A program made the position numbers and the translations under genes. From contig RPGO01000009.1 in NCBI GenBank assembly GCA_004193545.1, positions 15,166-79,165 on the forward strand: a stretch of DNA of 64,000 nucleotides. Direction: 5' to 3'. Below, one piece after another: positions 1 to 51,893 of this stretch. The stretch comes from Candidatus Argoarchaeum ethanivorans. GTDB lineage: Archaea; Halobacteriota; Methanosarcinia; Methanosarcinales; EX4572-44. Every line of letters begins with the position of its first letter. The stretch's first letter is position 1. The notes under the pieces were generated by a model that was given only the letters and a program-made list of their open reading frames with translations, was not told the DNA's origin and ran no database searches.

Positions 1-90
1 TCTGCACAACTGCACAACTTCGTTGTGCAGAGATAACCGGGAACTCTCGATTGCGCAAGCAATCGAGTGCGTTAGCAATCAAGTTGTGCC
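1..90. repeat. REP-like intergenic hairpin cluster, cut by the window edge
   Basis: Two perfect 9-bp-stem hairpins: CTGCACAAC-TTC-GTTGTGCAG (10-30) and CTCGATTGC-GCAA-GCAATCGAG (46-67). The same two stem families recur at 931-990, 4811-4960, 8915-9140, 51766-51891 and 53662-53683. Confidence 0.8.
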
Positions 91-930: not shown

Positions 931-990
931 GAAAACTACACAACTTCGTTGTGCAGAAAATAACCGGAAACTCTTGACCACGCAGCAATC
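931..990. repeat. Degenerate copy of the hairpin unit seen at 1-80
   Basis: CTACACAAC-TTC-GTTGTGCAG (936-956, one mismatch) followed by AAAATAACCGGAAACTCTTGACCACGCAGCAATCAAG. It is colinear with the unit at 10-67. Confidence 0.7.
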
Positions 991-1303
991 AAGAATCAAA
1001 GGTTACCGGCTATTTCCAAGCCATAATAAGGAAGAGCATATAACAACTCGGACAGTTGGAAAAATATTCGCAAATGCCTATAAAAAGGCAAACATTAAAA
1101 AGGATGCTGCGGTTCATAGTCTAAGACACAGTTTTGCCACACACTTGTTAGAGAGCGGGGTGGATTTGAGATATATCCAAGAGCTTTTAGGGCATAAGAG
1201 CAGTAAAACAACGGAGATATACACACATGTAAGCAATAAAGATTTGAGTAAGATAAAAAGCCCATTAGATAATTTGCTCAACAAAGGGGATACAAAAGCA
1301 TGA
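974..1303 (+). pseudogene. Tyrosine recombinase (phage-integrase/Xer family), C-terminal catalytic fragment only
   Basis: Motifs [39 protein letters not shown] (box II H-x-x-R, catalytic Y). Only about 100 aa are homologous. The N-terminal two thirds are missing, and the ORF start lies inside the hairpin repeat. Confidence 0.75.
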
Positions 1304-1344
1304 AAAGAAATATGGGTAATACGATGTGTTCCGATAGAGGTATG

Positions 1345-1416
1345 TATATCCGCAATACTGCGGATATAATGCCAAAATGGAGGTATATACGCATTGCGGA
1401 TATACCTGAGTTATAC
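1345..1416 (+). repeat. Upstream structured element U1: two hairpins plus a GTTATAC core, directly 5' of the SIR2-TPR cargo gene
   Basis: TATATCCGCA-ATAC-TGCGGATATA (1345-1368, perfect). AGGTATATACGCA/TGCGGATATACCT (1381-1407, one mismatch). GTTATAC at 1410-1416. Homologous to 12518-12578. Confidence 0.7.
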
Positions 1417-2716
1417 GCAATCGGCTTCGGGGGGTTATAAGTGGAGGCTACAGCAATGAGTAGTAAAGAATTTCAAGAATGTATAGACGAAATAGCAGGT
1501 TTAATAAAAAAAGGGCAAGTCCTCTTCTTCGTTGGATCAGGAATATCAAGAGAGAAACCAACTGGTCTTCCTACAGGGGAAACACTAAGGAATGAACTTG
1601 TAGAGTTATTTTGTTTTGATCAAGAAAATGATATCAAACAATATCTTTTAAATGCGGTTGAGAAAATAACTTTGGAGGAAGTCTCCCAAGTCATCTATGA
1701 ACATATAGACGACCGATTATTGGATCTGTTATCGACTATACTTGATGATCAAAAAGTACAACCAAATAACATACATCAATTTCTCGCAAAGTCTTTGACT
1801 TATGGCAATGTTGTAGTAACTACAAATTATGACAGCATGATCGAAAGGGCTTATACCGAAAATGTACCAAAAGAAATACAAAAGGAAAAAGCGCTTTGGC
1901 TATATTATGATGACCATCATTTCGATGAGTTTTATGATTACCGCCAAAATATAGTGAGTAGTGAAGAAGACACCAAGTGGTTCTCACCTATACTTAAACT
2001 TCATGGAACTCTCCAAGACATTAGGTCGAAAAGAAATACTAGGGATAGTGTCATTACTATTTTAAGCCGAATCGAAAGTTTACCCTTGCCTAAGAAAAAA
2101 GCGCTTAAAAATTTGTTTGATGATTATCATGTTATCTTTATGGGTTATAGTGCTCGGGATTTAGATATTTTTGAATGTCTTTCAGAAATCACTAGTCGTA
2201 GAGAAGATTTAACTTTGAAATGGAATTTAGATATTAGCGAGACGATTTCGGATCTCTATAGGATTACTGGCATTGGGGGAGGGATGAATAAAAAGAAGAT
2301 TTTTTGGATTAAATATTATCCAGAGCAAGAACCAAAAATATTGACATATAAGAATATTAAAGATGAAAGCAAGAGAAAAACTGATTGGGAGACCCTAAAT
2401 ACTAATAAGGTCTTATTGAATAGATGCATATACGGAACTGATTTAGGAATAAAAATAAAGCAAACTGCGATCAAATTTGTAGAAGCATTAGCAAATAGAT
2501 TAAAAAAAATAGACGATAAACATTTTTGGATTTTACCTAAGCAACAAGATACTCCAGACGAACAACATCTTAAATCATACAGAAAAGATAAACTCATCGA
2601 ATTGGCAAGCACAGTTCCTAAGTACTCAAGAATGCTGATATTGGCTGACATTGCTGAGAAAGCAAGAGTATGGGGTATTGCTAAACAATTTTGCAAGGAA
2701 GCACAGTTAATAGACA

Positions 2717-3757
2717 TTATAGTTACGAACCTAATATTTCTAACTTATGTTCCTCATCAATAAACTTTTCAATCCATCCCTTCGCAAAGCTGATCTGTGA
2801 TGAATATTTCCGAAACTTATCACTGATTATCTCTTTCATGTGATTTAAATCTACAATAAACTCGCGTGAAATGACTTTCTTGATGCTTTTCCAGATGAAT
2901 TCAATTGGATTCAAATCCGGAGAATATGGGGGCAAAAATACCAATACAATCCCGTTTTCTTCAGTAAACTTTGTAGTATCTTTTGCCCTATGCGAACTAA
3001 AATTATCAAGAATAATAACAATGGTCTTTCCAGGGTTTTTGGACCTTATTTCACCAAAGAATTCACAAATCGATTCCTTTTTCGAGTTTTCCTTAAAGTC
3101 GATAACTGAGTTTCCGTTTAATGCATAAAATCCAAAAGTATTCGCTCGTAATTTTGTAGTGTTCTTGCATATTACGGGTTTTGTAAACGACCACAACCGC
3201 TGTGTATTTGACGTTGTCTGAGGGGATGTTTCATCAAAAAAACCTATCATAGCGTCATTATTTAGTTCAGGAATGTTTTTTTTAAACGTTCTTCCGCATC
3301 ATCTGGTTTTCGGTAATCATGAGGAAATGGTTTTGCGTGGTGCATCTTGAAACTTTTTAAAATAACTCGTATCTGCTTTTGAGTATATCCGACTTTAAAC
3401 TCTCTTAAAACAAGTTCTCTTACCTCTTCTGTTGTCCAATTGTTCTGTTTTTTCAGTATTCTTTTTAGTTGTTCTTTTTGTTGAATTGAGAGCTTCGAGG
3501 GTTTTCCTCCTGCAAATTTTGGTTTTAAACCGTCATATCCTGCTTCATTCCATCTGTTCTGCCAAATATAGGCAACAGGTTTTGAAATTTCTACTCTTTT
3601 GGCTGCCTTCTCAACACTCAGCCCTTCATAACGGAATTTAATAAGATACAATCTTTGTAAAATTTTTACATCCTTCTCTATCGATTTTATTCTTTTGGTT
3701 AGTTCTTCAACACTCATGTGTCGCACAATGGTGATTGATTCATGTCTTGTCATGAAT
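2717..3757 (-). mobile_element. IS630-family insertion sequence (about 1.04 kb)
   Basis: Contains HTH plus DDE_3-type transposase frames. Flanked by the direct repeat ATAGACA. I could not recognise terminal inverted repeats by eye, so the ends are approximate. Confidence 0.7.
2723..3717 (-). CDS. IS630-family transposase in two frames, joinable by a -1 shift at an A8 run
   Basis: The N-terminal frame (3262-3765 ORF) has an HTH. The C-terminal frame (2723-3250) has IVIILDNFSSHRAKD...LPPYSPDLNPIEFIW. The heptamer A_AAA_AAA (minus strand, 3276-3283) is in phase. The -1 frame reads K-N-I-P-E-L-N-N-D-A-M-I-G-F without a stop. Alternative start M at 3753. Confidence 0.75.
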
Positions 3758-4724
3758 ATAGACAAAGAACTGATTAGTTATAAAAGTTACGTTCTTGACT
3801 ATAATTTAAAATCTATTGCTGAAACAGAACGGCGTCTTGGTTGGTATTTTTACCAGTTGAATCGAGAAGGCGATGCTGGTAAGGCATTGCACCATTATGA
3901 ATTAAGTCATTCTTCATATCAGTTGCTTGGTGATAAGTTTGAAGAAGCTCGCCTTAAAAGCTCGCTTGGTCTCTTATACAACAGAAGACAAAGAGAATTA
4001 GGGAAGCTGGAGTTAGATACATCAAAGACATATGTTGAACGCGCTTGGGATGTGCTAAAACCAATTCTTGATCCAACGCATACTATAACTGAAGGCAACA
4101 TAACGAGCAAGGATGAAATAGATCAAGTAGTTGACAAGATGATAAACTTATCTCGTCATGTAACCGTTGAACAGAAACGTATACTTGCGAAAGTTTGGGG
4201 TGGAATAGCCCATGTTTATCTCCGTTTAAGTGGGGATCCTGGAGGAGTTATTGTTAGGAAAGGAAGAACTGAGATTGAAGAGGATGAAGAGAATAGACAA
4301 TTATTATATAAAGCAGAGACATTCCTCAGAGCAACTCGGCAATTAGAAAAAGAAGTTGGAGCAATCCGTGATTTAATACAAACTGATCACTTGATAGGCC
4401 TAACACTTACTAGACTTGGAAAAGCTGAAGAAGCAATTAAATTTCATGAAAATTGGACGAGAAAGGCAGGATTACTTGGATGGAAGCATGAATACGCACA
4501 AGCATGTAGAAATTTAAGTGTAGCATATGCATACAACGGAGATGGGGAAAGTAAAAAATGGGTTGACGAAGCTATTAAGACTTGGGAAAATTTGCAAAAA
4601 ATAACAAGTGAGGATAGAACAACAGACATTGAAGCAGCAAAGAAACTCAAGAAAAAGATTTCCAATTTAATAAAGAAATAAGCAATATGGAAAAGAGGAT
4701 AATAACACACCTCGCCGACAGCGT

Positions 4725-4806
4725 ATAACACGGTGTATGCGGTTCGCTTCGCTCACCAAAATGCTCGGCTTCGCCTCGCACTTCGCATACACCGAGAACG
4801 TTATCT
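4725..4806 (+). repeat. attC-like imperfect palindrome D1, immediately 3' of the SIR2-TPR gene
   Basis: ATAAC(4725-4729)-A-CGGTGTATGCG(4731-4741), a 42-nt loop, then CGCATACACCG(4784-4794)-AGAAC-GTTAT(4800-4804). Same geometry as 14524-14601. Confidence 0.7.
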
Positions 4807-4810
4807 GCTG

Positions 4811-4960
4811 CACTCGATTGCCTGTGCAGCTTGATTACTTCGTAATCGAGAGTTGATTTCTGCAAAAGCGAAGTTGTGCAGTGCTTGCGTAATCGAAAAT
4901 TAAAAATTAATTTCCGCACAACGAAGTTGTGTGGTTCTGCAGAACGAAGTTGTGCAGTAC
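4811..4960. repeat. REP-like hairpin cluster
   Basis: CTTGATTAC-TTC-GTAATCGAG (4830-4850). CCGCACAAC-GAA-GTTGTGTGG (4914-4934). CTGCAGAAC-GAA-GTTGTGCAG (4937-4957). One more degenerate copy at 4859-4881. Confidence 0.8.
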
Positions 4961-8949: not shown

Positions 8950-9140
8950 TCGAGAGTCAAATATTACTGGCTATTTTTTGCACTTGATTGCTATGCAATC
9001 GAGAATTAAAAGTTCCCGGTTGCCTTCTGCACAACGAAGTTATGCAGTGCTTGCGTTGTATACAGTTACTGTTTGTCTCTGTACACGAAGTGTACAGTTC
9101 TGCAGAATGAAGTTATGCAGTGCTTGCGTAATCGAAGAGA
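8915..9140. repeat. Largest REP-like hairpin cluster in the window
   Basis: CTCGACTAC-TTC-GTAGTCGAG (8934-8954, perfect). CTTGATTGC-TAT-GCAATCGAG (8983-9003). CTGCACAAC-GAA-GTTATGCAG (9027-9047). CTGTACAC-GAA-GTGTACAG (9079-9097, perfect). CTGCAGAAT-GAA-GTTATGCAG (9100-9120). Confidence 0.85.
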
Positions 9141-9273
9141 GAAAATAAAAATCCTTAAAAGGGATGGATTCACATTTAAGTAAAGAAAATTTGTGCTTAT
9201 GTAAAACGAAGTTCATCATTAAGTAAACGTTAATGAAACACTTTATAACAAAACACCACTCAGGACTTGTACC

Positions 9274-12241: not shown

Positions 12242-12517
12242 TAGGATATTGATTTCGAGTTTCAACTTTTATGCAAACGAGTCCCCCATTCATGGTTGTA
12301 AAGGGGGATCGCACGCATAGTGGCTATTTTCATTTAATTACTATATCCCGCTACTCTATAGATGATGGGCGTTATGTGCATCCTTCGGATGGCTTGAACC
12401 AGAATAACAATCGTGGCGCTAAAATTGGTGCATGGATAACACTACAAAAAGGGACATGTGAAGAAACAGAGGTTATTCATACTTGCATCTTTAAGATGGA
12501 TAGACGAATATAAGTTT

Positions 12518-12578
12518 GGATATAATGCTAAAATATAAGGAATATACGAATTCAAGTTCGGATATCCTCAAGTTAGGC
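12518..12578 (+). repeat. Upstream structured element U2, homologous to U1
   Basis: GGATATAATGCTAAAAT (12518-12534) matches 1362-1378 at 16 of 17 positions. Hairpin AGGAATATACGAA-TTCAAG-TTCGGATATCCT (12538-12568). GTTAGGC (12572-12578) fits GTTRRRY. Confidence 0.65.
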
Positions 12579-12630
12579 GAAATGCTGCCCATTTCTAAAT
12601 TCCAAAAGATAAGTTTATAATCAGAAATCA

Positions 12631-14499
12631 TTGACTAAGATATTTGTAAACTTCAAGAGCTTGCCAATGAAGAAATCCAAACAATCGAAAATACCCAGCC
12701 ATAGTAAAACAAGTTTTACCGATGAGCGGTCAACAACTTTGATTAAGTATATTTTGGCGACTCATGGAAGAGTAATGACACAACTTTATTCTAACGATAA
12801 ATGGCCAAATATAGATGGCTTTTTGGAAGTGCAAGACAGCAATAGGAATTTAGTCGGTAGATTATTTGTGCAAGCGAAAACATTGCCACCCAATCATAAA
12901 AACAAATTTCGTTGTCCAATTCCGTTTTTTTCCAGTTGTGAAATAGACCCAATCCTATTATTTGGCGTTGATAACCAAAATAAAAAGGTGTATTGGCGCT
13001 ATTTTGATAGCCAAATCATTAAAAACATTGACTTTAAAAATAACAAATACTCCAAGACAATAACCTTTGATAGCAACAACTTTTTTGATGAAAACACAAG
13101 TAATTATATTGGTGAGTGGGAAGAGATTATCAAAAATAATAGGTTCAAGTTCCAAAATTATGATGAGTTGAGCAATGCCTATATGATTATTCTGCAAAGT
13201 TCAAATGCGGCATTAGGTAAAGTCAATAATGATTTTGTTAGAATTCACGACTTTTTAGATACCTTCAATGGTTTATTAGACCGTGAATTTTCTATAGTCA
13301 AAACCCTTTTTTATCCTCGCACTTGGAATATCGGTATCGCTTATTATGAATATAAGCCTTCAAAGCTTAGTTATGCTTTGTATCCTATCTATTTAGATAA
13401 AAATGATGTTCAAATCAAAGAAGTTGACAAAAACCTACATGACAAAATTCAAAAAGAGGGATTAAGTTTCACCGGACATTTTGCCGAAAATCCCATAGAA
13501 ACAAGACCAAAAGAATACGCAAAGGAGATTATACAGTCCAAAGTTTTCAAGATGCTGGAAAACAAACCACTCAGTCATGCAGGCAATGACTTTCTGGCAA
13601 GAGAATTTATTTTTGCCTTTGTTGATAAATTCCATGCTCAACTTGGATTAACAAAAAAAGACACCCACACAATCCGCGAGATAGAAAAAGCTTTTTACCA
13701 ATATCTTCCTTCGTGGGTAGAAGAAGCCGCCAATTTTATGGTTTCAGTAAAACGCAACGGCAAAAATAAATTAACCGATTGTTTGACTGTTGATAGGTTG
13801 CGAGGTGGGCAACCGTATTTCGACCCTGACAGTATGATTCGGCAAATTATGAAAGATGAACTGAAAGATATTGAGGATAAAGTAAAGGCAAGATTGAAAG
13901 ATAAAAAAGTGAAAATCCCAAATTGGCCAATAGGTAATCAAGAATTGCCCCGTGGTGTTTTTGTTGAGCTTTTTACTTATCTCAGAAATACTCAAGATGA
14001 AATAACTCGTCCATACAATCCCAAAGATTTTCACCGATTAAATAGCTGGGTTTGGGAAGTATTCTCTAAAAAAGATGCCGAGCAAAACTTAAAAACATTT
14101 TTTGAGAACTTACTAAGTGTCTACAAAACAATACTTGAAAACAATTTCCCTATCCTAAAAAATGAACTTTCACTTTTTAGCAAAGCAGACAAAATCATTG
14201 TTACTTTTGCAGTAAAAGATAAATATAAATCTGCCCAAGATAGACCTACTTACAAAATGTTCTATCTCAAGTCTGAAAATAAACATCTTGAGAGGTCGAT
14301 TATGGTTTTGACTAACAAACAGGCAGAAGAATTTAATAACTTTGACTGGAATAAGCGAGAAATTGATCACCAGAGAAATAAATACAAAGTTGTTTCTATT
14401 CGTAGCAGTGTTTTGGATTTTATTTATGAAGATACGCCGATGTTAGATTTTGTTTATCATCTGTTAGATGATAGATTAAAAGATTATTTTAAAATTTAA
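12631..14499 (+). CDS. Large hypothetical protein with an N-terminal DUF4365 / PD-(D/E)xK-like motif (candidate defence nuclease)
   Basis: 622-aa ORF in a visibly AT-rich stretch. NIDGFLEVQD...GRLFVQAKT resembles the D...E.Q.K signature. No NTPase motifs seen. Alternative start ATG 12667. Confidence 0.6.
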   Translation: MTKIFVNFKSLPMKKSKQSKIPSHSKTSFTDERSTTLIKYILATHGRVMTQLYSNDKWPNIDGFLEVQDSNRNLVGRLFVQAKTLPPNHKNKFRCPIPFFSSCEIDPILLFGVDNQNKKVYWRYFDSQIIKNIDFKNNKYSKTITFDSNNFFDENTSNYIGEWEEIIKNNRFKFQNYDELSNAYMIILQSSNAALGKVNNDFVRIHDFLDTFNGLLDREFSIVKTLFYPRTWNIGIAYYEYKPSKLSYALYPIYLDKNDVQIKEVDKNLHDKIQKEGLSFTGHFAENPIETRPKEYAKEIIQSKVFKMLENKPLSHAGNDFLAREFIFAFVDKFHAQLGLTKKDTHTIREIEKAFYQYLPSWVEEAANFMVSVKRNGKNKLTDCLTVDRLRGGQPYFDPDSMIRQIMKDELKDIEDKVKARLKDKKVKIPNWPIGNQELPRGVFVELFTYLRNTQDEITRPYNPKDFHRLNSWVWEVFSKKDAEQNLKTFFENLLSVYKTILENNFPILKNELSLFSKADKIIVTFAVKDKYKSAQDRPTYKMFYLKSENKHLERSIMVLTNKQAEEFNNFDWNKREIDHQRNKYKVVSIRSSVLDFIYEDTPMLDFVYHLLDDRLKDYFKI

Positions 14500-14523
14500 A
14501 ACAAAGAGTGAGCAGCACATCAC

Positions 14524-14601
14524 ATAACATGATATATCTGGCTACGCTCCGCCCAAATTTTTGCTATCGCAAAAACTTCAGATATACCAGAAACGTTAAG
14601 C
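14524..14601 (+). repeat. attC-like imperfect palindrome D2, 3' of the 622-aa gene
   Basis: ATAAC(14524-14528)-A-TGATATATCTG(14530-14540), a 38-nt loop, then CAGATATACCA(14579-14589)-GAAAC-GTTAAGC(14595-14601, fits GTTRRRY). Confidence 0.7.
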
Positions 14602-14672
14602 GAAATACGTCTTCTAAATCCACAAAATATACATAAAATGAAGAAAGTCATAATCAAAAAGGAGGAATCAGA

Positions 14673-15266
14673 ATGAAAAAGAAATTCAATCAGGTGTATC
14701 GATTTAAGATATCATTATTGGGTATTAGACCACCTATTTGGCGACGAATACAAGTTCCAGAAACCTATACGTTTTGGGATTTACACGTTGCCATTCAGGA
14801 TGTAATGGGTTGGGCGGATTATCATCTTCATGAATTTGGAATAACTTCTCCTGAAAACGGAGAAAAGGTGAGAATAGGAATCCCTGAAGAAAATTTTGAC
14901 AAAAAAGTTCTTCCTGGATGGAAACAAAAAATTGCTGATTATTTTTCACAGGAGAATGAAAAGGCAGATTATGTATATGATTTTGGAGATAATTGGGAAC
15001 ATATTATCAAGTTGGAAAAAATCCTCCCAAGAGAAGAAAATATCAAATATCCTATATATATCAAAGGGAGAAGAGCATGCCCACCAGAAGATTGTGGTGG
15101 GATCGGCGGTTATTACAACCTATTGGAAATCATAAAGAATCCCAATCACGAGGAGTATGAAGAAATGTTAGACTGGTTTGGTGGGGAATTTGATCCAGAA
15201 CGTTTTGATGTAGAAGAGGTTAGTTTTGACGATCCTGTTAAACGTCGAAAAATTGCATTCGGGTAG
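14673..15266 (+). CDS. pRiA4b ORF-3-like (PRiA4_ORF3 domain) protein
   Basis: YRFKISLLGIRPPIWRRIQVPETYTFWDLHVAIQDVMGWADYHLHEF plus CPPEDCGGIGGY is the typical family signature. Confidence 0.8.
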   Translation: MKKKFNQVYRFKISLLGIRPPIWRRIQVPETYTFWDLHVAIQDVMGWADYHLHEFGITSPENGEKVRIGIPEENFDKKVLPGWKQKIADYFSQENEKADYVYDFGDNWEHIIKLEKILPREENIKYPIYIKGRRACPPEDCGGIGGYYNLLEIIKNPNHEEYEEMLDWFGGEFDPERFDVEEVSFDDPVKRRKIAFG

Positions 15267-22208: not shown

Positions 22209-23829
22209 TTACTCCGGGCATCCATTTTTAGTCCATCCTCGAAGACGATAGTAACTCTTTAGTTCTTCTTCAAAACCAGATGGTTTCATTATCTCTGGAA
22301 GAACATCATCTTTCTTATCGAAGCCGCGTTTACAATTAAATCGCCGCTCCATCTCAACAATGCTTGCTCCAAGCATTTGCATATCCTTTTCTTCCATACT
22401 TCCTGTTATTTTCGATAGTATTTTCAGGTAATCGTCCATTGTATAAAATCGTACTGAAAACTTGCAAAGTGCCATCGAATCAAGCACTGCATTTCTATTT
22501 TCATTATAAACCACACGCTTCGCTTTGCCTGTTATTATGGTTCTTTCTGGATTGCCATATTCTTCCATGTATTCCATACTATAAAGGTGGTCTGCCCCAC
22601 GATTCGATACTGCGTAAGATAAACCCTGCCCTGCAAGACCTCGACAATCATGCCCTGGAAAGTCAAGACCTTTTACAGTGTAGCAGGGCACATCGTGTTT
22701 TTGTGCAAAAGCTGCAGCACCCTTTGCAAGTTCAGCACCAATCCCCTTGCGTTTTGCAATCATTTCAATCAGCTTATGCACACCATCATAATCTCCCCAT
22801 GTAATCTTATATTTTGTCCTGTTTTTTTCTGATGCTTCAATCAAACCTGCAACTGCTGCACCAGTGGAGATGGTGTCAAGCCCATATTTGTTGCATAGAT
22901 AATTAGATTTAATAATATCATCGAGGCTGTTGACACACAGGTTTGAACCGAGGGCCATGAGAGTTTCGTACTCTGGCCCCTCGGTTATGATATTATATTT
23001 TTTACTCTGCGTTACCCGTTTGCAGGCAACCAGGCAGCTGTGGCAGGTGTTAACATTGATCGTGTGCTTGCGAAGCGCTTCACCGTCGATTTTCCCTGCG
23101 TCTTCATAAGTGGTTGCTGAATAGTTTCTGGTTGGAAGTGCCTGATTACTATTTGCCACACCCAGGATGCTTGATGTTCCAAGGTATTTCAGACCTGTCA
23201 TACTGTCAACAACTTTTTTCCAAAGACCTGCATCGATATCAGTGTAACGACCTACTGGAATCATAGTTCCACCAGATGCAACGACTGCTTTCAAATTTTT
23301 ATTACCCATCACAGCACCAAGTCCACCGCGTCCAAAAGCTCGATGCATCTGGGTCATGATATTTGCAAAGTATACCTGATGCTCTCCAGCAATCCCTATA
23401 ACAGCCGTATTTCGAAAATGCACCCGGCATTCTTTTGTCAATCTCATTGGCTTCAAATACGTCAGCGCCCACAAGGTGAGAGCAGCGTCTCGAAGAGTTC
23501 TGCGGGTTCATGCACCACATTCCTCACCAATATATACGGGTACACAGGTGAGGATGCTCTTCCCTCAATGATCACTGCGGTATCCTGTGCGTGCAGAGTT
23601 CAACCAAAATTGCCGCCGGCATTAGAACTAAAATCGTATTATTGGTCAATGGTGAAATACTGAGCTAACATTATGACGTGCTGAAAATGGGATGGACAGA
23701 ACCAGTTAATGTGCCTGTTGCAAATATCAACTTATTATCGGAATGTAAAGGCTTTTTACATCTGGTTTTTACCTCATCTGAGAGTGCTGTCGCAAGTCCG
23801 CGCCCACCAATAAAACCAAGGAAACTCAT
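22209..23829 (-). pseudogene. Aldehyde:ferredoxin oxidoreductase (tungsten AOR family) with a decayed N-terminal domain
   Basis: The C-terminal 421 aa are intact (GIAGEHQVYFANI, GRGGLGAVMGNKNLKA, DSMALCKF). The N-terminal domain (MSFLGFIGGRGLA..., SPLT, NAGGNFG, AVIIEG, VYPYI) is spread over three frames with TAA and TGA stops between 23475 and 23829. Confidence 0.75.
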
Positions 23830-24131
23830 CATCTATCTCCTCGGTACGGATTGTCTGTTTGAGGTAGGTTGACGCGCAAGATTCATATCAAGCTCCATGA
23901 AGAGTGTTGTGCTTCAAAATGCATAACTTGCAGAAGTCCTCTATCATTTATCAGCACCTTTTAGAAATCTTCGCTAATAATCCTTTACCAAGCACTTTTA
24001 TTGTTTTGGGACTATTTAAAGGCTTTTTGCTTCTATTAGATTTGTGCCACATGCGAAATGCTTGAGCTTCCTTTTTGCCTCACTACTGCATAACCTAATT
24101 TCTCAAAACGATTTTAACTGTTTTCTCTCAA

Positions 24132-24268
24132 GTGGTTGTAAAGTTGTTGAGTGTTGTATTGTTTCGACCCGATTGTATATTCGAATTATATTATCTACGT
24201 CTTATGTTTGAACCGCATGAAGAGTTAGAGTTCACGGCGCAACTTGCCAACAACTTTACAATGACCAC
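24132..24268. repeat. About 137-bp unit bounded by roughly 20-bp inverted repeats (MITE-like or long hairpin)
   Basis: GTGGTTGTAAAGTTGTTG (24132-24149) against the reverse complement of CAACAACTTTACAATGACCAC (24248-24268). Confidence 0.4.
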
Positions 24269-24610
24269 GTGGTGGGGGCTGTCAACTTGTTGGGTGTTGG
24301 TATCTTCCATGTTTTGATGTCAATTATTCCATTTTTCGCGATTTAGAAAGACTGAGTATTCCTTGATATGTCTTGTATTTCTTTTTATTTGGTTGGGATC
24401 GGTCTGTCGGTAGTAATTTTTCAACTTGATTGTTCGTTTGGGGATTGACCCATCTCTCATGAAGATGATAAGTCGTTTCAAAGTCGAAGGGGATGATTTT
24501 TTTCCGTATCCACTTTTGTAAAACGCGTGGAATATCGTCATATTTATTTAATAATTTATTTAATCTTTCCTATTGCAATATCAAAAGAGTGGTATGTCCT
24601 GAATATTTCC

Positions 24611-25045
24611 TTAATTTTTGTGAAATAGATGCATAATTTGATTTATTCCGATATGAGACGGCTTTGGACTGGGCTTGATCATGCCCATCCTTTCCTATCA
24701 TTTTCCTTTCCTATCATTTTGAATGGAGTGGAATATGCATAATTGATGTAAAGCTCCACAGTTTCTCGATTATGCTATTGGCATCCTCTTGTGATCCGTT
24801 GTTATTGTAATAAAGCGGTTTTATCTGCAAGTACTGATTTTAAAGCTGTATGAAACTGTCATTAATCTATTTTTATTGGCTATCTCTTCAGCGATTGGGA
24901 TATTAAATAAAGCATCGAATAATGTCAGACGGTAGCTTTTTCTACCATCAATCTTGATATATTACTCATCATAGCAGTAATAATCGGAATAATCATGTAT
25001 TTTATTATTGATTCTCTTTTCATCCCAGAATTTCGCCAGTTCTTT
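24611..25045 (-). pseudogene. Decayed DDE transposase remnant, family unassigned
   Basis: The minus-strand translation reads KELAKFWDEK...YYCYDE*YIKIDGRKSYRLTLFD...ITITTDHKRMPIA*...HQLCIFH with several in-frame stops. Confidence 0.5.
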
Positions 25046-25651
25046 ATCGATTGAGGAGTTGTGAGAGGTTATCGGTGATTAATTTGAGGAGGGCGAGATT
25101 CGAAGAACGTATGGAGATCTCGCAGTTTTTCGCAAGGAACGGTAGCCTGTTTTGACTAAACCATCTATTTTTCTCCTTGAATATCGATGCATATCGATGA
25201 TTCGGCTATACAACCAAGTTTAACTGTGTTCAAACCATGAAATTCCTGCCGAATCACACAATAAGAAGAACCACAAAATGGGGACAAATTGGGTTAACAA
25301 GTTCAAAATGGTTATCTGCCAGGAGGGAATCAATCCCTTGTTCACATGATACAGTTTATTATCCATCGAAATCAGCTCTGCTACTTGGTCTTCTATATGG
25401 TTCCGGGGTACCAGATGGAAAAATCAGACAAGAGAAGCTGAATCTGCGAGATGTTTGTTTTCAAAGTAGATAACATTGTAACACTCATTGTACATACTCT
25501 GTTTTCCTTATGCATAGATTTTTCGATTTATTTTTGGATAAAAACTTAAATTATAAGACAAAATCAGATTTAAAAAGAAGATACAGGTGTTCCAGCATGG
25601 ACATGTTTATAATTAACGCCAACACCCGGAGAGTTTACAACCACGTTCTCT

Positions 25652-25912
25652 TTAACATTGTGTGGGTAAACCCGAAGACAACTCCAATTTGCCTGCCACC
25701 AGATAAATCATCGTATTTCTGTATTTAACCGTCTTAAATCCATAGGATCTTTTGACGACAGTTTTGATTTTGTTGTTCAATCCCTCAGCAACGCTATTGT
25801 CGAGTCCTGTTCCGATTGCTTCCAGAATCCCATAAGAAGGTTTATCCACGGTCTCAGCAAGTTTGACGATTTCTTCAATCCTATTAAGAAGGTCTGGATA
25901 CGTGGACTTTTT
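25652..25912 (-). pseudogene. ISL3-family transposase, C-terminal fragment
   Basis: NSVAEGLNNKIKTVVKRSYGFKTVKYRNTMIYL matches the conserved ISL3 C-terminus (EG.N.KIK...R..YGF). Confidence 0.65.
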
Positions 25913-26200
25913 TTGGGCACCCCACTATTTTAGTGTGGGTGCTATGAACCAAAAATTCAGAATCTCAATCAAGCTGATTTGATGGTCGCAAATCCCGGCT
26001 TTCATGCAGGGGGTGACCGGAACAGTAATCCAATTCTTACTGCTCTTTCCACTGAGTGTTAAATGCGCTTATTATGTCATGTCTAAAAATTGGATTACCA
26101 TGACGTTATCTTGTTTTTGTTGATGAATTCTTCTATTTCAACGTCAACGATTCATCATTAAACTTTGAATATTTAAATTATTTATATTCTCTAAAAACTT

Positions 26201-29556: not shown

Positions 29557-29749
29557 ACATTATAAGGTATGCATTTTGAACCTTTTATCTCAAAACGTTT
29601 CGTGAGATTAATATAGCTGCATAAAAAACCACGAGATTTACCGTGATTATAGTCTTCAGTAAAACTAAATTCAAAATCGCGAGATTGGAACACCTGTATA
29701 CAACGCAAGCAGAAATAATGAACTTTGACAATCAAAGTAGCAATAATTT

Positions 29750-29768
29750 TTGATTACGTAGTAATCAA
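29750..29768. repeat. Isolated REP-like hairpin
   Basis: TTGATTAC-GTA-GTAATCAA, a perfect 8-bp stem of the GATTAC stem family. Confidence 0.6.
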
Positions 29769-29821
29769 GATACCAAAAATTAGAACAATTTGAAGTGTTT
29801 TAAGGGCAGAGGCTTGCAGTT

Positions 29822-34456: not shown

Positions 34457-35623
34457 TCAACTCGTTATTTTTTTCCCATCAGAACTGCTAAATACATCGC
34501 TTGCTGCATTCACACCATCACCAATCCGCGTAATCACCTGATATTCCTTGAGCACCACTTCAAGTGTTTGTATGGTTGTAAGAATGTCACGTTCTGTAAA
34601 GTTACCCATTGCACCAATTCTAAAAATGCTGCCTGAAAGATGCTCCTGCCCGCCCGAGATCTGGACCTTTCGTTTAAGCATTCCATCTCTTAGCTTTTTA
34701 TCATTGATGCCTTCTGGCAAAAACATAGCAGTAACAGTGTTAGAATACTCACTAATCTCGTTTAGGCTTGGAAATGGCTTTATCCCCAGTGCTTCTGCTG
34801 CTGCCCTGATGGCTGCTGCTGCCATTTTATGTCGCTTCCTGCGTGCATCTATCCCCTCCTCGTTACTGACGTTGAGAGCTTCTTCAAGAGCACAAAAAAG
34901 GGAGACTGCTGGCGTGTATGGCGTTTGTGTAATCTCTTTTGCAGAAGATTTTCGATATGCATTCAAATCCGCATAATAAGGTGGTTGATCAACAATGGCG
35001 TCCCATGCAGCACCACCTACTGAAATGGCTGAAAGCCCTGGCGGTGCACCAAGACATTTTTGTGAGCCGACAAGAGCAATATCAACTCCCCACTCATCAA
35101 CCAGTACGGTATCGCCGCCAATTGAAGTGACCCCATCCATTATAAATAGAGCATCGTATTGATGAGCAAGCTTACTTACTTCCTTTGCAGGATTTTTTAT
35201 ACCGGTGGAAGTTTCATTGTGCACCATTGTCACAGCCTTTGCACCATCTGATAAAGCATTTTCTACTTTATCAAGTTCTATCGATGTACCCCACTCGAAT
35301 GTAACTGGTTTTACTTTTCCATATCGTTCTGCAATGAGTCTGAACCGTTCGCCAAACTTTCCATTTTCAATAGTAACGACTGTATCATTTCGTCCAATGA
35401 TGTTTCCAACCGCAGCCTCCATCGCACAGGTACCACTGCCACTCATTACAAAAATATCGTTTGCTGTTTGAAACAGTTCTTTCAGTGTTTTCTGGCATTC
35501 CTCGTAGATTCTGCCAAATTCCTTGCTCCGATGACCAATCATGGGGCGGCTCATTGCTCGTAGTATGCGAGGCAGCACCTGGACAGGTCCTGGTATCATA
35601 AGAAGTGTGCTTTCGTCTTCCAT
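34457..35623 (-). CDS. Class V PLP-dependent aminotransferase (serine-pyruvate / alanine-glyoxylate type)
   Basis: LMIPGPV N-terminus, HNETSTG, and the lysine region VGSQKCLG. 388 aa. Confidence 0.85.
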   Translation of the reverse strand: MEDESTLLMIPGPVQVLPRILRAMSRPMIGHRSKEFGRIYEECQKTLKELFQTANDIFVMSGSGTCAMEAAVGNIIGRNDTVVTIENGKFGERFRLIAERYGKVKPVTFEWGTSIELDKVENALSDGAKAVTMVHNETSTGIKNPAKEVSKLAHQYDALFIMDGVTSIGGDTVLVDEWGVDIALVGSQKCLGAPPGLSAISVGGAAWDAIVDQPPYYADLNAYRKSSAKEITQTPYTPAVSLFCALEEALNVSNEEGIDARRKRHKMAAAAIRAAAEALGIKPFPSLNEISEYSNTVTAMFLPEGINDKKLRDGMLKRKVQISGGQEHLSGSIFRIGAMGNFTERDILTTIQTLEVVLKEYQVITRIGDGVNAASDVFSSSDGKKITS

Positions 35624-35689
35624 ATCAATATCTCCATTAAAGTATTACAATCATACAGACAACCTTGGCATGTATAGTTTACTATTTAC
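35571..35689. repeat. Direct repeat copy 1: 5' end plus upstream region of the class V aminotransferase gene
   Basis: Near-identical to 38660-38779. The differences are a few substitutions and a 2-nt indel. Confidence 0.9.
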
Positions 35690-35848
35690 CTTAACTCCGA
35701 ACGAATAGGGAATAGGTATCATCTGAATATCCTGTAATATCTTTTCTATCACAGGTGCGAGCGTGAAAAACTAAAACGAAACGTATATATACCAAGTCAT
35801 TCCTGTAAAAGGTACTGGATTTATAACAAATAAAATGGAGTTGATAAG

Positions 35849-38584: not shown

Positions 38585-38659
38585 TCAGAGCATAAAAGGA
38601 AAATACTGAATGGTGACAGAGATAAATAACATCATTGCCGCCGGTGTACTTGAAGGTGA

Positions 38660-38779
38660 GGCAGCACCTGAACAGGTCCTGGTATCATAAGAAGTGTGCT
38701 TTCGTCTTCCATATCAACGTGTCTCCATTAAAGTATTATAATTATACAAACAACCTTGGCATGTATAGTTTACTATTTA
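38660..38779. repeat. Direct repeat copy 2: orphan duplicate of the aminotransferase 5' end and promoter
   Basis: The minus strand reads MEDESTLLMIPGPVQVLP and then diverges. The rest of the gene is absent here. Confidence 0.9.
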
Positions 38780-48648: not shown

Positions 48649-48724
48649 TTATTATACCCCGCAGCAGAGCCTGCTGTTGGGACATGCCACAAAGCAAGTT
48701 TTTTTAAGCGTGGATATATAAGAA

Positions 48725-49019
48725 CCTTAACTCCGAATGAATAGGGAATAGGTCTCATCAAAATATCGTATAACGTACTCCTTTTCGCAAATCAAACCAC
48801 ATAAGCACCGATACTTTTATAATAACATATCCCCTATGTACCAGATATGGAACAATGGGCCATAGAATGGCTGAATGAACAGAGAGATCAAGGTGTAAAA
48901 TGTCTTGAAGTGAAGATGCATGGGAAAAATCACTACGTTTATCATTCAACCACTTATTGGGATAAAGAACTTAAAAACCAATAAAAACATCAAAATATCT
49001 TGGAAAACAAGGACATTAC
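48725..49019 (+). mobile_element. Solo IS end with a decayed transposase N-terminus
   Basis: The 35-nt CCTTAACTCCGAATGAATAGGGAATAGGTCTCATC (48725-48759) matches 35689-35724 with 2 mismatches. The 45-aa ORF at 48847-48984 (…HYVYHSTTYWDKELKNQ*) continues out of frame as KKPIKTSKYLGK and then stops at the phoU gene end. Confidence 0.5.
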
Positions 49020-51039: not shown

Positions 51040-51792
51040 ATGAATACGATGAAAGTGAAAATCGTGCATCTGTCAGATATTCACACTGCTAATCCGCATT
51101 TCCTTCCGGAAATGGCTCTGGAGGTGGTAGAAAGGATAAACGAGATAAATCCGGAAATCGTGATTATTACTGGTGATCTGACAGAAAGCGGTTATCCTTT
51201 TGAATTCAAGTGTGCTAAAAGCTATATCGAGAAAATAAACTGTGCATCAAAGGTGATAATTCCAGGAAATCACGATGTGAGACATGTTGGCGATCTGTGT
51301 TTCGAGGAAATATTTGGCTCAAGGTCGAAAGTTAGGCGATACAAGGGAATAACAATTGTTGGCATAGATTCTACACAGCCGGATATTGATGATGGACATA
51401 TTGGCAGGGATAAGTATGAATGGATAGAGAAGTGCTTTGATACCGATGATTTCAAGATTTTTGCATTACACCATCACCTGATGCCAGTTCCGTTTACTGG
51501 AAGGGAGAGGAATATACCAGTGGATGCCGGTGATGTCCTTGAGTTGTTGGTCAGGTGCAAGGTAGATCTTGTGCTTTCCGGGCATAAACATGTGCCATGG
51601 GTGTGGAACCTGGATGGCATGACAATACTGAATGCAGGAACAGCATGCACCAACCGGATGAAGTGGAGTATTCCCCAGTCGTTCAACCTGATTGAGCTTG
51701 ACAGTGAGATGCTTAGAATATACAAGATCTATTCCAAAGGCGGGCATGAACTTATCCTTGAAAAACCGCACAACTTTGTTGTGCGGGGATAA
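51040..51792 (+). CDS. Calcineurin-like metallophosphoesterase inserted between pstS and pstC
   Basis: LSDIH, GDLTESG, GNHD, HHH and GHKH motifs. Its last codons form part of a hairpin repeat. Confidence 0.8.
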   Translation: MNTMKVKIVHLSDIHTANPHFLPEMALEVVERINEINPEIVIITGDLTESGYPFEFKCAKSYIEKINCASKVIIPGNHDVRHVGDLCFEEIFGSRSKVRRYKGITIVGIDSTQPDIDDGHIGRDKYEWIEKCFDTDDFKIFALHHHLMPVPFTGRERNIPVDAGDVLELLVRCKVDLVLSGHKHVPWVWNLDGMTILNAGTACTNRMKWSIPQSFNLIELDSEMLRIYKIYSKGGHELILEKPHNFVVRG

Positions 51793-51891
51793 CTCTCGAT
51801 TGCGGAGCACCACACACCGTGTGCGGAAACAATTCTCGATTACGCAGTAATCGAGTGCGGCAAAATAATTCTCGATTGCAGAGCAATCGAG
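51766..51891. repeat. REP-like hairpin cluster between the phosphoesterase gene and pstC
   Basis: Three perfect hairpins: CCGCACAAC-TTT-GTTGTGCGG (51766-51786), CTCGATTAC-GCA-GTAATCGAG (51835-51855) and CTCGATTGC-AGA-GCAATCGAG (51871-51891). Confidence 0.85.
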
Positions 51892-51893
51892 AG

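Follow-up and report, generated by a model that had tools for sequence, protein, structure and literature searches.

The window, which is the whole 64,000-nt stretch of Candidatus Argoarchaeum ethanivorans DNA that was analysed, contains two segments that each begin at an attI-like site (S1 and S2) and end in an imperfect palindrome (D1 and D2) (Table 1). The first segment carries a SIR2-TPR gene that is split by an IS630-family insertion sequence, with the SIR2 and TPR reading frames continuing on either side of the element. S1 is preceded by the remnant of a tyrosine-recombinase gene, the sole integrase-like ORF in the window, and no recombinase gene is left upstream of S2. The second segment encodes a 622-aa protein from a rare family (103 clusters). 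The first-pass annotation, which described the two palindromes, had overlooked the truncated integrase, the attI-like sites 5' of both cargo genes and the IS630-family element within the SIR2-TPR gene. D1 and D2 are single sites among housekeeping genes, at a distance of 9.8 kb from each other, and do not constitute an array.

Table 1. Positions of the cassette-related features in the window.
Feature	Position	Strand	Remarks
Truncated tyrosine-recombinase gene	974..1303	+	C-terminal ~88 aa of catalytic domain left (...LLGH...TEIYTHV)
attI-like site S1	1334..1414	+	31 nt past recombinase stop (1303); ends CCTGA-G|TTAT, G = 1410
Cassette 1	1411..4800	+	From TT after attI G to G of D1 R' box; cargo SIR2-TPR
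SIR2-TPR gene	1441-4681	+	SIR2_2 and TPR_12 domains; weak PADLOC SIR2 matches
IS630-family insertion sequence	2720..3790 (approximate bounds)	-	Splits SIR2-TPR gene; two ORFs
IS630-family ORFs	2723-3250; 3262-3765		DDE_3; HTH_32/HTH_23
attC-type site D1	4720..4806 (hairpin 4725-4806)	+	Starts 43 nt past stop at 4681; model score 88 bits
attI-like site S2	12455..12576 (core 12510-12576)	+	Ends CCTCAA-G|TTA, G = 12572
Cassette 2	12573..14595	+	Cargo 622-aa protein of unknown function
622-aa protein gene	12631-14499	+	True start probably Met at 12667
attC-type site D2	14518..14605 (hairpin 14524-14601)	+	Starts 24 nt past stop at 14499; model score 90 bits
D4 hairpin (unproven candidate)	26021..26107	+	GGAAC-A, 15-16-bp stem, ATGAC-GTTATCT; from structural scan

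D1 reads ATAAC/A/CGGTGTATGCG, a 42-nt loop, then CGCATACACCG/AGAAC/GTTAT. It consists of an R'' box (GCGTATAAC), an 11-bp L stem, a branched terminal structure formed by the 42 nt, the AGAAC segment and an R' box G|TTATCT (G = 4800). D2 has the layout ATAAC/A/TGATATATCTG, a 38-nt loop, then CAGATATACCA/GAAAC/GTTAA, with CATCACATAAC as R'', an 11-bp L stem, a 38-nt terminal structure, GAAAC and the R' box G|TTAAGC (G = 14595). The sequences and coordinates given for both in the first-pass annotation are correct, and its reading of compensatory change in the inner stems holds, with four fully compensatory pairs and one single-sided change. The statement that these stems differ at most positions does not, as only five of the 11 pairs differ. 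The G..TAT..G positions of the stem are conserved throughout the site family described below. The minus strand of both elements folds better, with RNA and with DNA parameters, and two further details change when this strand is read. The supposed A:C mismatch of D2 is a G.T wobble, the one such pair in its L stem, and what had been taken for an internal loop of 1 versus 5 nt is a continuous helix (AAC-G/T-GTT) with a 4-nt bulge (TTCT or TTTC). The 3' core of D2 (GTTAAGC) fits the GTTRRRY consensus, whereas that of D1 (GTTATCT) does not. Stable small hairpins are found within D1 and D2, with mini-hairpins of the GAA type on one strand.

The sequence pattern common to D1 and D2 is expected 0.02 times per shuffled window. 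A loose scan for structure only recovers D1 with 11 and D2 with 10 Watson-Crick pairs, while each shuffle yields 1.25 hits of 10 or more pairs. Such a scan is weak on its own, so that the elements owe their significance to homology, to covariation and to the breakpoints seen by comparison. The same type of scan gave the D4 hairpin, with 14 Watson-Crick pairs against a maximum of 12 in all 40 shuffles. D4 was considered as a third family member; it is missed by both covariance models described below (R1 and R2) and has no complement to a cassette start, and it stays a candidate that is not counted.

The first covariance model was built from four cleanly aligned sites, since MAFFT alignments that included D4 or the sites of related loci L003 and L087 mis-registered the stems, and the remaining sites were kept as held-out tests. 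The model recovers held-out relatives, including the L003 and L087 sites. Models R1 and R2 detect 28-36 sites, some of them in arrays in L016 (eight sites), L089 (five), L087 (three) and L093 (three). In each of these four loci two or more attC sites share one orientation and are spaced by less than 4 kb, the arrangement that defines a CALIN; the window has no such arrangement. In the 28 aligned sites 91% of cells pair, and both sides change in 10 of the 11 inner pairs. The covariation score is 0.462, compared with 0.129 in shuffles, and was reached by none of 500 shuffles; with slid partners it is at most 0.08. The inverse cores of R'' and R' (AAC-GTT) pair in all 28, as in the imperfect palindrome of an attC site. 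D1 and D2 are thus confirmed as homologous imperfect palindromes. Their family numbers at least 28 sites, covaries strongly and is common to CPR bacteria, Bacteroidota, Spirochaetota and archaea. Two checks proposed in the first-pass annotation bear out its reading: the covariance scan of relatives gives further copies in related genomes and in other phyla, and in 18 of 22 sites the bottom strand has the more stable fold, with a mean advantage of 2.9 kcal/mol (p=3e-4).

The borders of the variable DNA can be seen by comparison of related genomes. At the D1 locus (FeoA-HPS) the flanks are 92-97% identical among three related Methanosarcinales genomes (the window, L001/L002 and L003). The cargo between these flanks is unrelated, being SIR2-TPR in the window, a different SIR2 gene in L001/L002 and a TIR gene in L003. 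On the left, homology between the window, L001 and L003 stops at GTTAT (1414), and the variable segment as a whole is bounded by ...CCTGA-GTTAT and ...AAC-G|TTATCTGC. Different genes occupy one chromosomal site, and homology breaks at GTT. S1 itself holds repeated CGGATATA / TATATCCG boxes. A further hairpin within it, D3 (1344-1405), was examined as an attC site; it has no 5' AAC, is deleted to a variable degree in L001 and L003, and has been reread as part of the attI-like site.

The D2 locus provides the converse case, in which the same cargo is found elsewhere. Positions 12579-14596 of the window match 2440-4474 of L089 at 95% over 2037 nt, and the DNA on either side of the block is unrelated in the two. 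The L089 copy, bounded by GTT at both ends, lies inside its array of five confident attC sites (30-58 bits). A 56%-identical homologue of the 622-aa protein is found within another attC array, in L093. S2 is 64% identical to S1 over 131 nt (blastn, E=1e-4), and both can be aligned to the attI-like sites found past the recombinase stop in L086 and L087. An alternative left boundary for cassette 2, at GTTATGTG (12370; an 8-nt match to the D2 R''), was rejected because L084 is collinear across this position and because S2, with 15/20 complementarity at 12572, explains the boundary. The homology to L089 likewise begins at the start defined by S2 and not at 12370.

The cassette ends carry a further signal. 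When the 20 nt before the hairpin are reverse-complemented and compared with the start of their own cassette, the mean agreement over 16 cassettes is 15.0/20, against 9.4/20 for non-self pairings (p=7e-10) and 10.0/20 for the sequence that actually lies downstream (p=5e-5). The signal extends past the consensus R' box. The R'' flank of D1 is complementary to the start of cassette 1, GTTATACGC, at 9/9 positions and at 15/20 overall. The flank of D2 likewise reaches 15/20, although the nine bases next to the crossover fit the rule less well (7/9). Joining the cassette ends stabilizes the bottom-strand fold by 7.5-11 kcal/mol. This complementarity to the own cassette start is the integron signature of a circular intermediate. 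The sites thus share with attC their position 3' of an ORF, an R'' that pairs with the start of its own cassette and a boundary at the G|TT of R', the placement of the crossover being resolved to within GTT(A/T). Neither a cassette circle nor an unoccupied attI site was seen for this genome, nor was an intact recombinase.

Taken together, D1 and D2 are very probably attC-type sites at the 3' ends of mobile cassettes that were inserted at attI-like sites. Since each site marks the 3' end of a cassette at such a site, the window would contain two decayed single-cassette integron-like platforms. Platform I would comprise the truncated recombinase gene, S1 and the SIR2-TPR cassette closed by D1, and platform II S2 and the 622-aa cassette closed by D2. 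The proposal of the first-pass annotation that the palindromes are recombination sites delimiting mobile gene cassettes is supported by the copies in relatives, the cargo swaps, the relocated cassette and the strand folding. The two alternatives that it listed fare poorly. Terminators or 3'-UTR RNA stability elements with no role in mobility would suit hairpins that are small, stable and 24-43 nt past stop codons. However, the strand that folds better is antisense to the gene, no T-run follows D1 or D2, Rfam gives no relevant match for the hairpins in gathering or E-value mode, homology between genomes breaks exactly at the sites, and the complementarity of the flank to the cassette start has no explanation at the RNA level. 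This reading is hardly credible, though the hairpins may have a secondary role as terminators. The other alternative, subterminal structures of an IS200/IS605-type or other HUH single-stranded DNA transposon, could account for imperfect palindromes that edge variable DNA and for the mini-hairpins on one strand. Against it, no tnpA or tnpB is found among the cassette or flanking ORFs, each unit has one hairpin in place of distinct left and right ends, related loci contain tandem arrays, and a tyrosine recombinase and an attI-like site adjoin the cassettes. The array structure, together with the rule that R'' complements the cassette start, which is specific to cassette systems, effectively refutes it.

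The recombinase fragment matches PF00589 (1.4e-23) over profile positions 96-170 of 172 only, and its best NCBIfam match is the C-terminal part of the integron integrase model TIGR02249. The same 109-aa fragment is found in L001, L002 and L003. A contig search with it gave 80 independent recombinase loci at no more than 68% identity, and its close homologues are mostly fragments or frameshifted. In the full-length homologues the match to TIGR02249 is broken into two parts (model positions 1-180 and 234-315), and the scores, 196-241, stay under the cut-off of 265. Aligned with VchIntIA (2A3V), the family has 21 residues where IntI has 64, and the spacing from KDR to HxLRH is 58-63 aa in 11 homologues. 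The additional domain near patch III that characterizes IntI is therefore lacking from the family, as read from the full-length homologues, the window copy being truncated upstream of the IntI-specific region. The family has, in addition, an extra N-terminal domain. In the window, L001, L003, L086 and L087 the stop codon of the recombinase gene is directly followed by a conserved attI-like site, whose terminal GTTA is where the first cassette begins. Among the loci retrieved by recombinase similarity alone, 11 have R2 hits and in every one the array reads away from the recombinase gene. The family is tied to D1/D2-type sites by association only.

The affinity of these recombinases to Xer proteins raises the question of whether the cassettes exploit the host dimer resolvase XerA, in the manner of an IMEX such as CTX phage or of the Acinetobacter pdif modules, with the hairpin mimicking dif. 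The alignment of the family with XerA (5HXY) runs over the full length, and against the NCBIfam XerA model it scores above or only just below the threshold. CTX phage is a precedent for a folded single strand that is recombined by Xer enzymes without the IntI domain. The sites, however, are hairpins of 80-190 nt with AAC/GTT inverse cores and occur in direct orientation in arrays, whereas dif-like sites measure 28 bp. Further, the arrays have a dedicated recombinase gene beside them, which is accompanied by an attI-like site of its own, and the best PDB match of the family is VchIntIA, not XerA. Use of the host resolvase is accordingly highly improbable.

A less remote, but still unlikely, explanation is that a canonical IntI with the additional domain, encoded elsewhere in the genome or in a donor, moves what are ordinary integron cassettes, so that the Xer-like remnant is a bystander and the site geometry a lineage-specific flavour of attC. 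IntI1 recombines highly diverse attC sites, archaeal ones included, and archaeal IntIs with the additional domain exist (Ghaly 2022, PMC9668308). Recombinases without the domain near attC sites have been held not to be integron integrases (Cury 2016, PMC4889954), and the copies that adjoin the arrays are mostly decayed. On the other hand, the conservation of the attI-like site directly past the recombinase stop in five loci and the constant orientation of the arrays link the sites to the neighbouring gene, and no second tyrosine recombinase was found in the 17 loci searched, 16 of which have the family recombinase. The geometry of the sites also differs. In constrained folds, 29 of 33 family sites have a bulge of 3-4 nt on the R'-L' arm next to the crossover, while in the same comparison the excess unpaired bases lie on the R''-L'' arm in all nine published archaeal attCs. 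[quoted passage not shown] For IntI, a switch of such features between arms is reported to flip both strand choice and crossover point (Bouvier 2009, PMC2727003). With the bulge on the opposite arm, the off-consensus GTTATCT and a neighbouring recombinase family without the IntI-specific domain, D1/D2-type sites are not canonical attC.

The catalyst of cassette exchange is likely the Xer/IntI-like family whose remnant is found in the window. By analogy with integrons, a transient cassette circle would complete the attC site, the start of the cassette pairing with the 9-20 nt that precede the hairpin; in the circle the G would be joined to the cassette's own TTATACGC (D1) or TTAGGCGAAAT (D2). 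One strand, probably the bottom one, would then fold into the hairpin, and the tyrosine recombinase would exchange strands at G|TT with attI or another attC, giving a product that would be resolved by replication. With the window's own recombinase gene truncated, any present-day exchange depends on an enzyme supplied in trans.

A wider proposal, to be held tentatively and at slightly less than an even chance, is that a second lineage of integron-type gene capture exists. It would use a Xer/IntI-like enzyme that has a novel N-terminal domain and is without the IntI additional domain, would signal the polarity of attC by the bulge, and would be common to CPR bacteria, Bacteroidota, Spirochaetota and Methanosarcinales, moving defence genes across domains. 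The sites and the recombinase depart jointly from two features regarded as defining integron recombination, the R''-L'' extrahelical bases and the additional domain by which IntI reads these bases. If the proposal is true, cassettes can be recombined without the IntI-specific domain, and some of the numerous orphan attC clusters (CALINs) would have a cognate integrase that has gone unrecognised. Should the association hold, a recombinase could be assigned to some of these clusters, a route of gene flow between CPR bacteria or Bacteroidota and the archaea of the methane cycle would be indicated, and the evolution of tyrosine recombinases toward folded single strands would become directly testable. 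Within the Methanosarcinales lineage, cassette exchange is seen at nucleotide resolution, with three defence-type cargos at one attI-like site and one cassette common to an unrelated array. Single cassettes beside decayed integrases, which standard surveys drop because singleton attC sites are excluded, can nevertheless be real and recently active.

Integrons are the textbook bacterial gene-capture system. The sites described here resemble bacterial attC in forming an imperfect palindrome with AAC...GTT cores 3' of the cassette ORF, in their variable terminal structure and in the C before GTT, which corresponds to a G after AAC on the bottom strand (PMC2727003, PMC4889954). The G|TT boundary of R', the complementarity of R'' to its own cassette start, the better folding of the bottom strand and the tandem cassette arrays beside a tyrosine recombinase and attI are also those of bacterial integrons (PMC2727003, PMC4889954). 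In contrast to bacterial attC, the family has neither the symmetric unpaired central spacer nor the single extrahelical bases of the R''-L'' arm and shows the 3-4-nt R'-L' bulge instead. The R' consensus is GTTAT(N)TGAAAT where bacterial integrons have GTTRRRY, and the recombinase is without the IntI-specific insertion.

Archaeal integrons were reported only in 2022, by means of clustered canonical attC sites and a few IntI genes (PMC9668308). That study found attC cassettes in Archaea including Halobacteriota and Methanosarcinales, and lists a Methanoperedens CALIN (Data S1/S3); it left out singleton attCs, and the MAG that contains L003 (GCA_004212095.1) is absent from its genome list (Ghaly 2022, PMC9668308). 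The present loci are similar to those integrons in the position of attI immediately 3' of the integrase gene, in signs of sharing across domains and in a cargo rich in toxin-antitoxin, TIR, SIR2 and restriction functions (PMC9668308). The SIR2, TIR, PDC-S11 and PemK toxin-antitoxin genes carried across the loci agree with reported integron cassettes (Ghaly 2022 Data S7, PMC9668308). The present loci differ in that the archaeal integrons have IntI with the additional domain and nine tested attCs of canonical form, whereas here there is one cassette per platform and a decayed integrase of another type (PMC9668308).

The co-directional arrangement of integrase gene and cassettes, with attI 3' of the integrase gene, is that of the 'reverse' integrons of Spirochaetota (Treponema type) and is found in the window, L086, L087 and eight bacterial loci. 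The integrases of the Treponema type are genuine IntI proteins that possess the additional domain. They are also remarked upon in the survey of archaeal integrons (Ghaly 2022, PMC9668308). Sedentary chromosomal integrons, which serve as reservoirs of anti-phage defence genes (bioRxiv 10.1101/2024.07.02.601686; PMC12614218), similarly have a compact cargo of the defence type (SIR2, TIR, PDC-S11, toxin-antitoxin) that varies between close strains; for the cargo genes of the window a defence role is predicted only, from weak profile matches. Unlike the large arrays of the Vibrio type with an active IntIA, the window contains single cassettes at two chromosomal sites of an archaeon. In CTX phage (an IMEX) one strand exchange is carried out by a Xer-type recombinase and replication resolves the product. 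The phage uses the dif site and Xer recombinases of its host, however, and has none of the cassette arrays, dedicated attI site or AAC/GTT attC architecture that mark the loci described here.

Cassette exchange has taken place, at fixed GTT points, since the compared genomes diverged. Three contigs from close relatives were reached through homologues of a short ORF lying 5' of the SIR2 gene: L001/L002 and L003 (the last from a MAG labelled Methanosarcinales archaeon). Their flanks are 92-97% identical to the window. All have the order FeoA, 109-aa recombinase fragment, ...CCTGA-GTTAT junction, cargo, hairpin-G|TTATCTGCTGCACTCG, HPS/RraA gene. The cargo enclosed by the two GTT points varies: the window holds the SIR2-TPR gene, L001 a distinct 393-aa SIR2 protein and L003 a TIR gene, bearing out the proposal of the first-pass annotation that hairpins such as D1 delimit mobile cassettes. 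The L003 hairpin has a sequence of its own and the design of D1; in L001 the right half of the hairpin is deleted. The SIR2-TPR gene named in that annotation is real but not intact, being split by an IS630-family element. In the L003 TIR gene a frameshift follows an in-frame TAG; a pseudogene or a misassembly could account for this, a pyrrolysine codon being less likely.

One cassette also recurs in unrelated contexts. The 622-aa protein preceding D2, which gave no match in profile searches, is 93% identical to a homologue encoded on contig L089, within a 2037-nt block that is 95% identical to the window. The match begins just past the GTTA that closes the site before the cassette and stops at the GT of the D2 GTT, so that the cargo is GTT-bounded as had been anticipated; the sequence on either side is unrelated. 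The L089 block sits between two other cassettes in an attC array; a 56%-identical homologue on contig L093 likewise lies inside such an array. D1 and D2 could instead be the ends of an IS200/IS605-type transposon; with one hairpin per unit, tandem arrays in related loci and neither tnpA nor tnpB in the cassette or flanking ORFs, this is very unlikely. Directly 3' of D2 is a PRiA4_ORF3 gene, which begins past an R'-like TTAAGCGAAAT, has no attC of its own and may be a decayed second cassette. A similar gene in L089 forms a cassette that does have an attC.

The ends of each cassette are made to pair with one another. In integrons the bases after the crossover move with the cassette, so that its first bases pair with its own R''. 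Sixteen cassettes were scored, 12 of them taken from arrays and 4 being archaeal single cassettes: the 20-nt stretch that ends in AAC was reverse-complemented and its matches counted, giving 15.0/20 with the cassette's own start, against 9.4/20 (maximum 14) with the starts of other cassettes (p = 7e-10) and 10.0/20 with the true downstream sequence (p = 5e-5). The complementarity to the own start is still present at positions 13-20, outside the shared R' consensus. D1 matches its own start at 9/9 positions beside the core and 15/20 overall, D2 and L001 at 15/20 and L003 at 18/20. When the ends were joined in silico, the bottom-strand energy fell from -22.4 to -30.9 kcal/mol for D1, from -13.5 to -21.0 for D2 and from -14.1 to -25.3 for L003.

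The sequences first given for D1 and D2 match the window letter for letter. D1 starts 43 nt past the stop of the ORF ending at 4681, and D2 24 nt past that of the 622-aa ORF ending at 14499. Fold z-scores with RNA parameters are -3.9 (D1) and -4.3 (D2) for the minus strand, which is antisense to the genes; the plus strand scores -2.9 and -1.0, and the ranking is unchanged with DNA parameters. A pure terminator or RNA element, as might be read from the position behind two ORFs, is very unlikely, the better fold lying on the antisense strand. The minus strand forms a single helix, with AAC-G paired to T-GTT, followed by a 4-nt pyrimidine bulge (TTCT or TTTC), an 11-bp stem and a tip that branches into small hairpins of GAA or GNA type. 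The 11-bp stems were said to differ at most positions; by count 5/11 pairs differ, four of these being compensated on both sides. The fifth is the A:C mismatch ascribed to D2, which exists on the plus strand and is a G.T pair on the minus strand. A shuffled window would contain the literal D1/D2 pattern 0.02 times on average; a structure-only scan of the window did not set D1 and D2 alone decisively apart from chance.

D1, D2 and two sites from one metagenome contig were used to train a covariance model, which recovered further copies, including the held-out L003 hairpin and one L087 hairpin, and arrays in L087 (3 sites), L089 (5), L093 (3) and L016, a CPR Kerfeldbacteria MAG (8). It also matches sites in Bacteroidota, Spirochaetota and other loci. 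Across 28 aligned sites 91% of cells are paired and in 10/11 inner-stem pairs both partners vary. Covariation scores 0.462, compared with 0.129 for shuffled alignments (0/500 reach the real value) and at most 0.08 with slid partners, the fairer control because the alignment was fitted to the model. The conserved stem positions G..TAT..G look like a protein-binding box. The tip of D2 (CCCAAATTTTT...AAAAACTTC) recurs almost unchanged in one L016 site, an indication that attC sites of this type are shared across domains. A further window hairpin, D4, has the outline of D1 and D2 (GGAAC-A, 15-16-bp stem, ATGAC-GTTATCT) and a stem exceeding those of all 40 shuffles; neither covariance model recognised it.

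Coordinates of the features discussed
Feature	Sequence	Coordinates	Remarks
Hairpin D1	window	4725-4806	
Hairpin D2	window	14524-14601	
Site S1	window	about 1334-1414	
Site S2	window	12510-12576	core
Recombinase ORF	window	974-1303	C-terminal ~88 residues
Block shared with L089	window	12579-14596	
PRiA4_ORF3 gene	window	14673-15266	
attC of PRiA4_ORF3-like gene	L089	6182-6278	
Hairpin D4	window	26021-26107	
ISL3 transposase fragment	window	25652-25849	neighbour of D4
ORF-poor stretch	window	23500-26000	neighbour of D4
Clustered short palindromic intergenic repeats	window	8-89, 934-990, 4807-4958, 9008-9154, 29741-29782, 51762-51892	CTGCACAAC-TTCG-TTGTGCAG and TCTCGATTAC-GCAG-TAATCGAGA types
Near-identical 50-60-nt repeats	window	35569-35737, 38658-38779, 48724-48773	88-98% identity; unrelated to cassette sites
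TIR cassette gene	L003	3607-4321	TAG at 3771-3773
Decayed recombinase genes	L086; L087; L016	3229-4235; 9260-10339; 6680-8570	
Hairpins with shared R'' flank	L086; L087	9473-9561; 12952-13048	CGGCTCGGTCATATAAC; beside PemK/DUF2281 genes
Eight-site array	L016	557-6162	minus strand; same attC family
Site with D2-like tip	L016	3839-3946	

The only tyrosine-recombinase sequence in the window is a C-terminal fragment. Shortly 3' of its stop lies S1, which terminates in the conserved GTTAT junction, and its homologue S2 precedes the D2 cassette. In the metagenome contigs L086 and L087 an S1-type site follows the stop of a frameshifted, near-full-length recombinase gene. Arrays of small cassettes come next on the same strand, and their contents include PemK/DUF2281 toxin-antitoxin genes, a PDC-S11 defence candidate and an IS66 element. 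In the S1-type sites a TTCG(C/G)ATATA box is repeated in both orientations, direct and inverted, and their last box, spacer and GTTA resemble the 3' arm, spacer and R' of the hairpins (S1 GGATATACC-TGA-GTTAT; D2 AGATATACC-AGAAAC-GTTAA). S1, S2 and the L086/L087 counterparts are read as attI-type sites, and the window would thus hold two decayed, single-cassette integron-like platforms. The hairpin with the CGGCTCGGTCATATAAC flank precedes the PemK/DUF2281 pair in L086 and trails it in L087, which suggests related cassettes at different array positions. Palindromic repeats adjoin both ends of the D1 platform: one cluster sits where the recombinase gene is cut off at its 5' end, another immediately past the GTTATCTG of D1. 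They may be of REP or MITE kind and responsible for the truncation of the integrase.

With similarity to the recombinase fragment as the sole criterion, 80 loci were identified in species-representative genomes. In all 11 with model matches the array points away from the recombinase gene (8 downstream and co-oriented, 3 divergent), and no second tyrosine recombinase was found in these 11. Full-length members (357-497 aa) consist of an extra N-terminal region of 90-220 aa without a Pfam match, Phage_int_SAM_4 and the catalytic domain. Their top solved-structure match is VchIntIA (2A3V; 157 bits), with XerA at 150 bits. The IntI alignment falls into two pieces, with 21 residues against 64 in IntI, as does the match to the NCBIfam integron-integrase model, which scores under its cut-off; together with a KDR-to-HxLRH spacing of 58-63 aa (11 homologues), this shows that the IntI-specific additional domain is absent. 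Use of host XerA by the cassettes is unlikely; a canonical IntI working from elsewhere is a somewhat more probable rival, though still less likely than the main reading. Close homologues of the window recombinase are nearly all fragments of 100-190 aa, frameshifted or interrupted even on long contigs, which indicates widespread integrase decay beside its arrays.

By analogy with integrons, a cassette would pass through a circular intermediate and be recombined as a folded single strand; a single exchange of strands at G|TT, with attI or a second attC as partner, would yield a product that replication resolves. The association favours the domain-less family as catalyst, presumably now provided in trans, since only a truncated copy is left beside the cassettes. 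Profile matches of the window cargo genes are weak; SIR2, TIR, PDC-S11 and toxin-antitoxin cargo is probably anti-viral.

Archaeal integrons are already known, including attC clusters in a Methanoperedens MAG (Ghaly 2022, PMC9668308), as is cassette cargo of the SIR2/TIR/PDC-S11/toxin-antitoxin kind. That study left out singleton attCs, described integrases with the additional domain and tested canonical attCs; the MAG holding L003 is absent from its list (PMC9668308). Domain-less recombinases near attC sites were explicitly dismissed by Cury 2016 (PMC4889954), and the full-text literature searched, of incomplete coverage, held no description of the variant hairpin geometry or the recombinase association. 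Canonical attCs and the D1/D2 family share AAC/GTT inverse cores, the post-ORF position, the R' boundary, the complement rule, C before GTT, a variable tip, occurrence in arrays and a better-folding bottom strand (more stable in 18/22 family sites; mean 2.9 kcal/mol, p=3e-4). Canonical attCs by definition carry their extrahelical bases on the R''-L'' arm, the R and L boxes being parted by a roughly symmetric unpaired spacer (Bouvier 2009, PMC2727003), and nine archaeal attCs of Ghaly et al. (Data S9, PMC9668308), folded by the procedure used for the family, have the excess of unpaired bases on that arm in 9/9 cases. In the D1/D2 family, by contrast, the excess is on the opposite arm in 29/33 sites, mostly in the form of one bulge of 3-4 nt, four base pairs inward of the crossover. 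With IntI, swapping extrahelical features between the arms flips the strand choice and shifts the crossover to R'' (Bouvier 2009, PMC2727003), whereas here the crossover stays at R'. The altered hairpin geometry and a recombinase without the domain that reads extrahelical bases form a coherent pair of departures from the canonical system, and we infer a functional link between them.
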